A stretch of DNA of 63,840 bases, counting the filler, from Reclinomonas americana ATCC 50394 (taxonomy: Eukaryota), in the NCBI GenBank assembly GCA_048213135.1. It is 5 parts of 5 records of this genome, joined end to end, with 100 filler letters (N's around TTAATTAATTAA, not from the genome) between each part and the next. Parts side by side here need not be neighbours in the genome. Positions count along the whole stretch, not along the records: positions 31,583 to 41,625 come from AFZH01021510.1; 4 more parts are not named here. One strand, 5' to 3'. This document shows, in pieces, positions 33,538 through 36,829 of this stretch. The notes beneath the pieces are model-generated. The model was not told where the DNA came from. It was given only the letters and a program-made list of their open reading frames with translations, and searched no databases. The position numbers and the translations under genes were made by a program. Numbering within the stretch: position 1 is the first letter of the stretch; each line of letters starts with the position of its first letter.

Positions 33538-33910
33538 TCAGAGCCCAAGCGAGAAGCCAAACTGTGGTGTCGGCCAGTCAGCACTTGCGATCACACACAT
33601 GCAGAGAGAGAAGAGAGTGAGACTCACCGAAGGCGCGTTCACGGCTTCGCTTCCCTGGCGCACGCCACCAGACTCCGACACCGACTCCACCTCGTTGTCC
33701 ATACCGAGCACAGTCGTGTGCGTCGTGGCCTGTGTGTGGGAGGGAGACGATGTGAGCAACAGAAAGAGAACGCACTGTGCGAATGAATGCATGCATACCT
33801 CGCTGACTCCAGTCTCTGAGCTCGACGCTGTGTGCATAGAGCGGTGGTGAGCAGAGTGTCAGGGGGAAAGGAAGAGGAGGAGGAGGAGACGAATGCTCAC
33901 CTGATCCCAT
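33538..33910 (-). CDS. 54-aa microprotein, paralog 1 (4 exons): MGSASSSETGVSEATTHTTVLGMDNEVESVSESGGVRQGSEAVNAPSFGFSLGL
   Basis: Exons 33910-33901, 33827-33799, 33729-33628 and 33561-33538 total 165 nt with all GT..CAG introns; colinear with paralog 2. Confidence 0.85.
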
Positions 33911-34417
33911 GATGTGAATGTTCTCGCGGTACAATGACGATATGTCCTCCCGCACTCGGGCTTTGGGCGCGTTTTTCCTCTCATCGCAACGAGATGCAAA
34001 GACCAAGCAAGTGTGCATTTGGTGTGATCTTCCTCGATATCGGTCTCGGTCTTTGAGCTTCCCGCATGTAGAGAAACGACAAGCGCGCACTACTTCGCTC
34101 CCTGAATCGAGCAGGGACTCCCGCGTGCACATGCTTCCTTCTTCGATCCTCTCCCTCACTTGCATATACCCTGCTTATCCTATTCGATTTTTCTTGTTCT
34201 TCTTCTCCATCTGCTTTCCACCCTCACTTCGTCATTCTCTCCGGCATTTGTTATTCTTCTCGTTCTTCTTGTCTCCTTCTCCTCAACTGTCCTTTCATCT
34301 TGATCGGTCTTCTCATTATCCACCTTCTCCTCCTCTCCTTCTTCTTCCTCCTTCTTCATTTCTTCTTCTCCCCTTCCTCCCCTTTCCCCTCGCGTCCTCT
34401 CCCCGCATTCACAACCT

Positions 34418-35288
34418 TCATGACGACATTACAGCGCTCATGGCTGCGCGCACTCGCAACAAGCCATCACGAATCTGATGCAACCTGGCCGACACATCGG
34501 TCATCGTGTGCCACGCCTGCTCGTCGGCCCCCGTGTCATCCAAGTGCGCCGGCTGATTGCGTGCCCACTCGAGCAACTCGACCGTCTTGTCCGTGCCACG
34601 CGCAAACTGCGCCGCACGCGCCACCAACTCCACCAGCGTCTGCTGATGCTCCCGCTCCACGCAAATCACTTGACTGCGAAAAAAAAACAACAAACCACGG
34701 CATTAGAGGAGGAGGCTCGTCGCACGCTGAACAATCGCACCTGGTCACCGGCTGCTGCAACCGCGTGATAAACGCCGACTTGTGCGCCACCAGAAACTCA
34801 GCGTGCGCCTGCTCCGCCGCCAGAAACCCCACTCGCTCGCGCAAGACCTCGTCCACCGACGTAAACGCATGCGTGGCGCTCTTCGTCGACGCCTCATCCA
34901 TGCGCGATCGCAGCGTGTGCAGGTCGCTCTTGAGGCCGCTCAGGTGCCGCAGTTGGCGAATGAGTCGCGCGGATCGCGAGTGGGCGCCGAGGAGTCCCGC
35001 GCCCGGCGATGGTGGTGTTCGCGATGAGGATGAGGCGCTGCGTGGTGCAGATCCTGTGCGTGAGATGACCGTCACAGAGGGCGTTGACGATGAGGATTGC
35101 TGCGTGTGCGCGCGTGCGGTGAGTGTGAGCAAGAGCGACACCAGTGATGACGATGTGTGAGAGACCTCTGTGATGCCCAGTCGCTCAGCAGCTGCGGCCA
35201 CCTCGCGCACACCACCGCCACTCTCTGTGGCAGTGGTGGTGGTCGTTGTTGATGAGGACGAGCCGGCACCGCCTTCCCACGGGTTCAT
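34418..35288 (-). CDS. HAUS2: HAUS augmin-like complex subunit 2 (AUG2/CEP27)
   Basis: MNPW N-terminus and HKSAFITRLQQPVT|SQVICVEREHQQTLVELV match the conserved HAUS2/AUG2 motif K..I..RLQQP....IPVEAEYQ. Confidence 0.75.
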
Positions 35289-35335
35289 CGTTTAAGAGCG
35301 CGAAATCGCTCAACGAACGGATCACACCACTCACA

Positions 35336-36477
35336 ATGCCCACAAAGTTGCGAGCGGTTGCTCACTGTTGCTCGCTCACTCACTCACTCACACTGTGCAC
35401 ACTATATGCAGCGAGGAGCTCAATCGGGCGGCTCTGGTCAAGCTGGCCAAGACGACTGTGGCCATGTTCTCTGTGCCCTTTGCGGTGTACTATGCGGCCG
35501 ATGCGACGATAGGGTATGCCGGAGGTGAGGAGGAGGGTGGAGAAGTGTGTGGTGTGGGAATGAGAGAGGGGGTGGGAGAGGGAGAGGACTCTGCAAATAT
35601 AGATTGCTCGTGGAGAGAGATGGTGTTGTCTGTGAGGAGAGTGTGTGGTTGGTGGAGCCCGAGGGCGTACAGCGGGTTGACTGTGTGCTTCGTGAGGCGA
35701 TCAGCTCAGCGAGTGCATGCACTGGAGTCCATAGCACAGCGAGTGTGGAGAACTCAGCGCACCGAATGTGAGCACTGGAGTCCTCAGCGCAACGAGTGTA
35801 TGCACTTGAGTCCTCACTGCAGCGAGTGTATGCACTGGAGTGGTCAGCGCAGCGAGGAGTGGCCAGCGCAGTGATTGTATGCACTGGAGAACTCAGCGCA
35901 GCGAGTATATGCACTGGAGTGGTCAGCGCAGCGAGTGTATGCACTGGAGTCCTCACTGCAGCGAGTTATATGCATTGGAGTCGTCAGCGCAGCGAGTTAT
36001 ATGCACTGGGATGGTCTCCACATCGAGTTATATGTACTAGAGTCCTTAGCGCAGCGAGTGCATGCACTGGAGTCCTCAGCGCAGTGAGTGTATGCACTGG
36101 AGTGGTCAGCGCAGCGAGTATATGCACTGGAGTGGTCAGCGCAGTAAGTGCATGCACTGGAGTCCTCTGCTTCTCTTTGCATCTAACTCTCCCCCTTCCT
36201 CCCCTTCTTCCCCCTCCACGCAGGTATGTCCATTGTGGTCTCCGTCCTCTCCGTCATCTGCATCATGGCGTGGTACGTGTGGTCGGCCATGCACGAGGAC
36301 GATATGGCCAGCGACGATCCGGCCTTGGATCCCGCAAAACCACATCACCCGCGACTCAAACGCGACGTCGTTGCCGCTGCCGCCAAGGCCGCCCAACAAC
36401 CAGAAGGAGACAAGAAGGAAGAAGAAGAAGAAGAGGCAGTGGCACCCGCAGCAGTAGAAGACAAGAAGACCAAGTGA
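35336..36477 (+). CDS. VMA21: V-ATPase assembly factor VMA21-like
   Basis: Four exons: MPTN|EELNRAALVKLAKTTVAMFSVPFAVYY..|..|MSIVVSVLSVICIMAWYVWSAMHED; two TM helices and a C-terminal KKxx ER-retrieval signal (KKTK*). Confidence 0.8.
35700..36168 (+). repeat. Intronic minisatellite, ~30-31-bp unit, ~15 copies
   Basis: The unit cagcgagtgtatgcactggagtggtcagcg is repeated head-to-tail with variants inside VMA21 intron 3 (35692-36223). Confidence 0.92.
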
Positions 36478-36523
36478 AACGCTGTGCGAGTTCATTGTGT
36501 TATGTGTCGAGTGGGGTGTGTGT

Positions 36524-36829
36524 TTAGAGCCCCAAGCTGAAGCCGAACGAGGGTGCGTTCACTGCCTCGCCCTTCTGGCCCACTGGTCCCGACTCAGATG
36601 CCGACTCGACTGCGAGAAGAGTGAGCACAAAAAGAGTGGAAAATCAAGCACAACAGTCGACGAGCTCACCCTCGTTGTCCATGCCCAACACAGTGCTGTT
36701 GTTGCACAGTTCGTTGGTGAGTAATCACTGTGTGCGTGTGTGTGTGAGAAGAGAGAGAGAGAGAGTGTGCACTCACGTCTCTGTGTGTGCCTCCGAGGTG
36801 CCGTGCTCAGTCGATGTTGCGCTGCCCAT
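36524..36829 (-). CDS. 54-aa microprotein, paralog 2 (3 exons): MGSATSTEHGTSEAHTETTVLGMDNEVESASESGPVGQKGEAVNAPSFGFSLGL
   Basis: Exons 36829-36777, 36695-36670 and 36609-36524 total 165 nt with GTGAG..CAG introns; 43/54 aa identical to paralog 1. Confidence 0.85.

Follow-up and report, generated by a model that had tools for sequence, protein, structure and literature searches.

Do two short and heavily interrupted stretches of the nuclear genome of Reclinomonas americana ATCC 50394 encode a pair of related microproteins and, if so, what kind of protein might these be? The stretches lie about 3 kb apart on the minus strand of a 63,840-nucleotide sequence, referred to here as the window, which joins five parts of five records of GenBank assembly GCA_048213135.1 with filler between them; both fall within the part taken from AFZH01021510.1 (positions 31,583 to 41,625). 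Gene A occupies positions 33538-33910 in four exons and gene B positions 36524-36829 in three, 33538 being the last base of the gene A stop codon and 36829 the A of the gene B ATG. The two genes are old nuclear paralogues, each of which is spliced to a 54-codon open reading frame (ORF), and the encoded peptide is under selection. We consider it highly probable that they are a real pair of coding genes.

Reading and splicing the minus strand of 33300-37100 gave a coding sequence (CDS) of 165 nt with its stop codon for both genes, in exact agreement with the coordinates, GT-AG introns and product lengths of a first-pass annotation of this DNA. Gene A opens with a 10-nt coding exon (33901-33910) that holds the ATG and 7 further nucleotides, corresponding to Met-Gly-Ser and the first base of codon 4. 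This exon gives back the Met-Gly-Ser-Ala start of gene B, and the pattern ATG-GGN-Ser codon-G followed by GT occurs only there among 127680 window positions. It is followed by intron 1 (33828-33900, 73 nt, phase 1), exon 2 (33799-33827, codons 4-13), intron 2 (33730-33798, 69 nt, phase 0, after codon 13), exon 3 (33628-33729, codons 14-47, including an invariant block at 18-29), intron 3 (33562-33627, 66 nt, phase 0, after codon 47) and exon 4 (33538-33561, codons 48-54 and a TGA stop). In gene B, exon 1 (36777-36829) runs from the ATG to the second base of codon 18, intron 1 (36696-36776, 81 nt, phase 2) lies within codon 18, exon 2 (36670-36695) covers codons 18-27 in part, intron 2 (36610-36669, 60 nt, phase 1) lies within codon 27, and exon 3 (36524-36609) carries codons 27-54 and a TAA stop. 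All five CDS introns are of the GT..AG type with lengths of 60-81 nt.

None of the five intron positions is common to the two genes, and every intron splits codons that are unbroken in the other copy. Codons 3-4, interrupted by intron 1 of gene A, are continuous in gene B; the codons flanking intron 3 of gene A are continuous in exon 3 of gene B; and those flanking both introns of gene B are continuous in exon 3 of gene A. Since each intron breaks a sequence that is unbroken in the other copy, the junctions have good internal support. A plain ORF listing resolves neither gene, as had been noted in the first pass: gene A appears as one 99-aa unspliced ORF (33538-33837) that runs through two in-frame introns, and gene B as fragments of 23 and 34 aa. 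Both intron-encoded insertions in the 99-aa minus-strand ORF are hydrophobic. The lengths of four of the five CDS introns (69, 66, 81 and 60 nt) are divisible by three. Together, the unshared positions and these lengths point to retroposition followed by intron gain, or to a high intron turnover. Introner-type repeats were considered and rejected: the five introns resemble other window DNA solely through CT/CA microsatellites.

Comparison of the two spliced copies argues strongly for protein-coding function. The peptides, each of 54 aa, are identical at 43 of 54 positions without any indel, as claimed previously, and the CDSs are identical at 106 of 162 nt (65%), with the 56 differences distributed 16/10/30 over the first, second and third codon positions. 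At codon level, 21 of the 54 positions are unchanged, 22 show a synonymous difference and 11 a non-synonymous one; among the synonymous differences are four switches between the TCN and AGY codons of serine and two between the CTN and TTG codons of leucine. The NG86 method gave a non-synonymous rate (dN) of 0.293, a synonymous rate (dS) of 1.566 and a ratio (omega) of 0.187, and YN00 gave an omega of 0.194; dN/dS was taken from these two methods because the maximum-likelihood dS was saturated (17.2). A ratio of ~0.19 is well away from 1 and bears out the earlier proposal of selection on the protein, for which dN/dS had been named as the check. Fisher's exact test of non-synonymous versus synonymous differences on sites gave p = 2e-6. 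Synonymous changes also affect 7 of the 14 codons in the invariant block 41-54 and 4 of the 12 in block 18-29, and the example singled out in the first-pass annotation (TTT GGC TTC TCG CTT versus TTC GGC TTC AGC TTG) is correct. Because the invariant blocks hold such changes, we attribute the identity of A and B to selection rather than to recent gene conversion.

The similarity might instead come from duplication of a non-coding or regulatory element, or from exons that belong to neighbouring genes, given that both genes are tiny, need two to three introns each and are known from sequence alone. We regard this explanation as extremely improbable in view of the codon-periodic substitutions and of the frame comparison, in which the sense frame of the spliced alignment is clearly the best with 43/54 identical residues, while the other five frames yield 20/53, 17/53, 25/54, 35/53 and 18/53. 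The DNA similarity of the two loci is moreover limited to the exons and bounded by the ATG and the stop codon in both copies, with no significant alignment of the flanks (the downstream score was reached by 12 of 200 shuffles), and colinearity is seen only once all five canonical introns, at five different places, are taken out. Upstream of gene B lies a WD40 gene on the plus strand, so that gene B cannot represent the 3' exon of a minus-strand gene on that side. When the spliced A peptide was compared with the window by tblastn, the B locus was recovered at E 7e-14, a similarity well outside what chance would give; no third gene copy was found in the window either by this search (next best E 0.12) or by motif patterns.

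The start codons of both genes have A at -3 and G at +4. In gene B, an in-frame stop lies 15 codons 5' of the ATG, and two out-of-frame upstream ATGs are located at -46 and -31. A candidate intron of 61 nt (GT..AG) in the 5' untranslated region (UTR) of gene B, at 36834-36894 on the minus strand, may exist, and its excision would drop both of these ATGs. The stretch upstream of gene A is open and has no counterpart in gene B. Its G+C fraction at third codon positions (0.60) is below that of the CDSs and of three Pfam-supported ORFs in the window (0.73-0.80), with a fourth, the DAO ORF, at 0.65. A 15-nt motif, 14/15 identical between the genes, is found directly 5' of the gene A ATG (33913-33927, minus strand) and ~100 nt before the gene B ATG (36925-36939, minus strand). 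This motif is marginal, its score being reached in 1 of 200 shuffles; a start-site or leader element is a possible explanation for it.

What kind of peptide do the genes specify? Both products are acidic and rich in Ser and Thr, in line with their earlier description, with isoelectric points of 4.05 and 4.21, net charges of -6.4 and -7.3 and 16 and 14 Ser+Thr residues, respectively. Each is also rich in Gly, with eight residues, and contains no Cys, Trp or Tyr, and the grand averages of hydropathy (GRAVY) are -0.12 and -0.36. Conservation is distributed unevenly along the chain. Residues 18-29 (12/12) and 41-54 (14/14) are invariant, the N-terminal octapeptide MGSA[ST]S[ST]E is identical at 6 of 8 positions with Ser/Thr swaps only, and the segments 9-17 and 30-40 retain 5/9 and 6/11 identities. 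The N-terminus is hydrophilic (Kyte-Doolittle window values <=0 over residues 1-16) with no signal peptide. An amphipathic helix in block 18-31 was considered and rejected as not above shuffles.

This pattern of conservation bears on the possibility that A and B are precursors from which the invariant C-terminal octapeptide after Pro46, or some other piece, is cut out as the active product, the remainder serving as a recognition leader. The product is very small, its invariant C-terminal segment stands directly behind a Pro, the linker regions are variable, and small eukaryotic peptide precursors cleaved after Pro do exist. We nevertheless think a precursor improbable. The N-terminal octapeptide and block 18-29 are conserved as well, as are the six residues ahead of the proposed cut, whereas it is usually the core that varies in the precursor families known. 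The hydrophilic N-terminus and the lack of a signal peptide speak against it too, and no processing enzyme gene is present among the Pfam matches of window ORFs (110 ORFs of at least 150 aa, of 150 listed).

The last eight residues, SFGFSLGL-COOH, alternate large hydrophobic residues with Gly or Ser in the manner of a beta-strand. Among 2000 shuffles, 31 for A and 20 for B attained the beta-periodic hydrophobic moment of 0.45 that these residues have, and no significant alpha or beta periodicity relative to shuffles was found outside residues 47-54. The octapeptide of both copies also fits exactly the polar-x-G-x-x-hydrophobic-x-hydrophobic pattern (PoxGxxHyxHy) of the mitochondrial beta-barrel beta-signal. 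The first-pass annotation was therefore right about the match itself, and had built on it a beta-meander peptide with a C-terminal beta-signal that may oligomerise to form pores, amyloid-like fibres or extrusome filaments. The significant beta periodicity of the last eight residues also speaks for such a peptide. The same pattern, however, occurs in 208 of 127634 octamers (0.16%) of the six-frame translation of the window, and passages of a eukaryote-wide study describe the beta-signal as information-poor, frequent in non-barrel proteins and, in known cases, the last strand of a full beta-barrel protein (PMC3045335). Unlike the mitochondrial beta-barrel proteins (porin, Tom40, Sam50 and Mdm10), A and B have no barrel and consist of 54 mostly acidic residues, too few to form one alone, and no Pfam signal for porin, Tom40 or Sam50 was obtained. 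Residues 1-46 lack a dyad hydrophobic pattern, the beta moments of segments 1-17, 18-31 and 41-54 are not above those of shuffles, and the net charge of -6 to -7 together with the GRAVY values speaks against a membrane barrel. The barrel reading of the beta-signal is not supported, nor are the beta-meander, pore, amyloid and extrusome readings, the peptide being acidic and polar outside its last eight residues; we consider them very unlikely.

At the other end of the peptides, ATG GGN opens both spliced CDSs and places a Gly directly after the initiator Met. Both N-termini have a small uncharged residue at position 3, Ser at position 6 and no Pro at position 7. They match a PROSITE-type myristoylation pattern, defined by no charged, aromatic or Pro residue at 3, a small residue or Ser/Thr at 6 and no Pro at 7, against a background of 15 of 68 Met-Gly sites in the six-frame translation of the window. 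These rules for positions 3-7 are those of PROSITE PS00008. The earlier match of the N-termini to MGxxxS stands for both copies, and passages of PMC4736023 give MGxxxS/T as the usual N-myristoyltransferase consensus. On these grounds it is somewhat more probable than otherwise that Gly2 of the peptides would be myristoylated. Judged from their genes, A and B share the Met-Gly start and permissive residues with generic N-myristoyltransferase substrates of this class; they differ from them in lacking a palmitoyl Cys or basic patch as a second membrane signal and in their strongly negative charge. To our knowledge, the small acylated proteins described so far have either palmitate or a basic patch in addition to myristate. 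Myristate by itself confers weak or reversible membrane binding, and the same would be expected of A and B, because they would carry myristate alone, with no palmitate Cys, no basic cluster and a net charge of -6 to -7.

Taken together, these features suggest an adaptor peptide that is disordered, tethered by a lipid and equipped with a docking motif at its C-terminus, a reading to which we would assign roughly even chances. The product would be a soluble, strongly acidic and probably disordered microprotein whose initiator Met is removed and whose Gly2 is N-myristoylated co-translationally. It could then act as a lipid-tethered adaptor or regulator, with its function residing in the two invariant short linear motifs (18-29 and 41-54) and with the variable Ser/Thr/Glu-rich linkers as spacers and possibly phosphorylation sites. 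The C-terminal SFGFSLGL-COOH might fold as a single beta-strand and bind a partner through strand addition, much as a class II hydrophobic-x-hydrophobic C-terminal ligand does; alternatively, the strand may dip into the bilayer as a second weak anchor. Class II PDZ-type C-terminal ligands have the form hydrophobic-x-hydrophobic-COOH, and both A and B end in an invariant Leu-Gly-Leu with a free C-terminus, in a strand-like segment that would suit strand addition. The motif in A and B is short and common, which makes it a mechanistic lead only. In a more far-reaching version, A and B would be the first members seen of an undescribed family of myristoyl-anchored microproteins, whose invariant C-terminal strand would mimic the beta-signal and insert by strand addition into a membrane beta-barrel or the Sam50-type lateral gate of an insertase. 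The lipid-tethered peptides would in this way control the biogenesis or gating of beta-barrels at the outer membrane of an organelle; we hold this to be a very long shot.

A number of points weigh against the lipid-tethered adaptor. The mechanism of the adaptor, as distinct from the general reading, is drawn from motif architecture alone, and we put it forward as a tentative possibility with the odds against it. Acidic peptides are repelled by anionic membranes. Three ATGs upstream of gene A, at -108, -222 and -255, are in frame with its start, and the frame is open; translation from them could yield a product with an N-terminal extension, which cannot be myristoylated. Set against this are the low third-position G+C of that stretch (0.60) and its lack of a counterpart in gene B. 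Introns 2 and 3 of gene A are stop-free and in frame, so that intron-retaining products of up to 99 aa, not truncated, are possible. The gene pair is known here only as sequence, and, with no orthologue found, its conservation is that between two paralogues in one genome. Finally, according to passages of PMC4736023, MGxxxS/T is neither sufficient nor necessary for myristoylation.

Among described systems, the HASPs (hydrophilic acylated surface proteins) of Leishmania appear to be the closest known kind, by an analogy of kind and not of membership. Like A and B, the HASPs and the neighbouring small hydrophilic protein SHERP are small, hydrophilic and lineage-restricted and lack a signal peptide. 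As described in passages of PMC5271408, HASPs are N-myristoylated at Gly2 and also palmitoylated, and their paralogues, which have identical ends, flank other genes in one locus. The A and B copies likewise flank other genes. In contrast to the dual acylation of HASPs (Gly2 myristate and a nearby palmitoylated Cys), A and B have no Cys at all, and their genes are spliced. We know of no HASP counterpart of the invariant hydrophobic C-terminal octapeptide of A and B. General protein searches gave no match of this kind, and no direct comparison with HASPs was made.

Could A and B nevertheless belong to a small-protein family that has already been described? Searches for relatives used unspliced window translations as queries; these covered residues 14-54 of A, interrupted by 22 residues encoded by intron sequence, and residues 28-54 of B. 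Pfam-A returned no family for any of three exon-level translations (E <= 10), a PDB profile search with an exon-level query gave one chance match (E 5.2), and ESM Atlas gave no usable match for an exon-level query. A word search of 5.8 billion proteins with the 63-aa unspliced exon 3-intron 3-exon 4 translation of A yielded no candidate. HMMER against 1.84 billion representatives produced three matches at E <= 0.001, all to repetitive proteins of 1137-2912 aa with 9-20 matched stretches each, which were rejected as repeat or low-complexity artefacts; BLASTP of the best of the three gave no alignment at E <= 100. In metagenome contigs, 141 pattern matches were reduced to two loci by tblastn, and both were rejected as chance results of the search pattern used, the 17-residue match being antisense to a 195-215 aa bacterial-type ORF. 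None of 42 pattern matches in viral contigs or 26 in prokaryote genomes was confirmed. A literature search returned no paper for the C-terminal heptapeptide, and the papers returned for N-myristoylated microproteins were not relevant by title or abstract opening.

With these exon-level queries no described family was matched, in agreement with the first-pass annotation, which had recognised none, and no credible match came from Pfam, the PDB profile search, HMMER, the word search or ESM Atlas. The incomplete queries leave some room for a missed family, as does the high identity that a 34-residue match needs for significance among 1.84 billion proteins. The source lineage is also thinly covered and seems to be poorly sampled in protein collections. 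The mitochondrial carrier ORF of the window (30500-31366, minus strand) has a best match of 30% identity, with one protein at E <= 1e-10 among 8000 candidates scored, and the DAO ORF (12625-14607, minus strand) has no match at E <= 1e-10 among 7999 candidates scored from the collection of 5.8 billion proteins. Small spliced genes are rarely annotated. Because the lineage is barely represented, blank searches are weak evidence for novelty; on balance, we judge membership of A and B in an already described family to be unlikely. They are apparently new, and related in kind to small acylated hydrophilic peptides.

The surroundings of the pair are those of eukaryotic nuclear DNA, with ~58% G+C, short introns and ordinary genes. 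Pfam matches in the window comprise Ankyrin, DAO, WD40, Surp, AAA, Usp, mitochondrial carrier and AMP-binding enzyme, together with a weak HAUS2; no tRNA or Rfam match was found in the window. A and B had been described as flanking HAUS2-VMA21. The position of these two genes between A and B is correct, and their identities are weakly confirmed: the Pfam match of the minus-strand HAUS2-like gene has E 3.6e-5 and, at 24.0 bits, falls short of the 27-bit cut-off, and that of exon 1 of the plus-strand VMA21-like gene has E 0.0093. The VMA21-like gene and gene B converge (36475-36526), and because only 46 nt separate their stop codons, their 3' UTRs must be extremely short unless they overlap. On its other side, gene B diverges from the plus-strand WD40 gene, whose probable ATG lies near 37138. 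An intron of the VMA21-like gene contains ~14 copies of a 30-bp tandem repeat (35746-36164, 79-81% matches). A purine-rich (GA) low-complexity tract (34150-34420) makes up much of the ~500 nt between the HAUS2-like stop codon and gene A and has inverted low-complexity matches to DNA downstream of gene B.

If confirmed, A and B would represent a conserved microprotein family, apparently unannotated so far, in a eukaryotic lineage that is poorly sampled. The pair also illustrates cleanly that a comparison of paralogues can validate tiny multi-exon genes, here with a first coding exon of 10 nt, of a kind that ORF finders and most gene callers miss. That two 165-nt paralogues have no intron position in common is relevant to studies of intron turnover. 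For the family itself, a probable lipid anchor combined with strong negative charge and a strand-like, invariant C-terminus would be an arrangement unlike that of known small acylated proteins.

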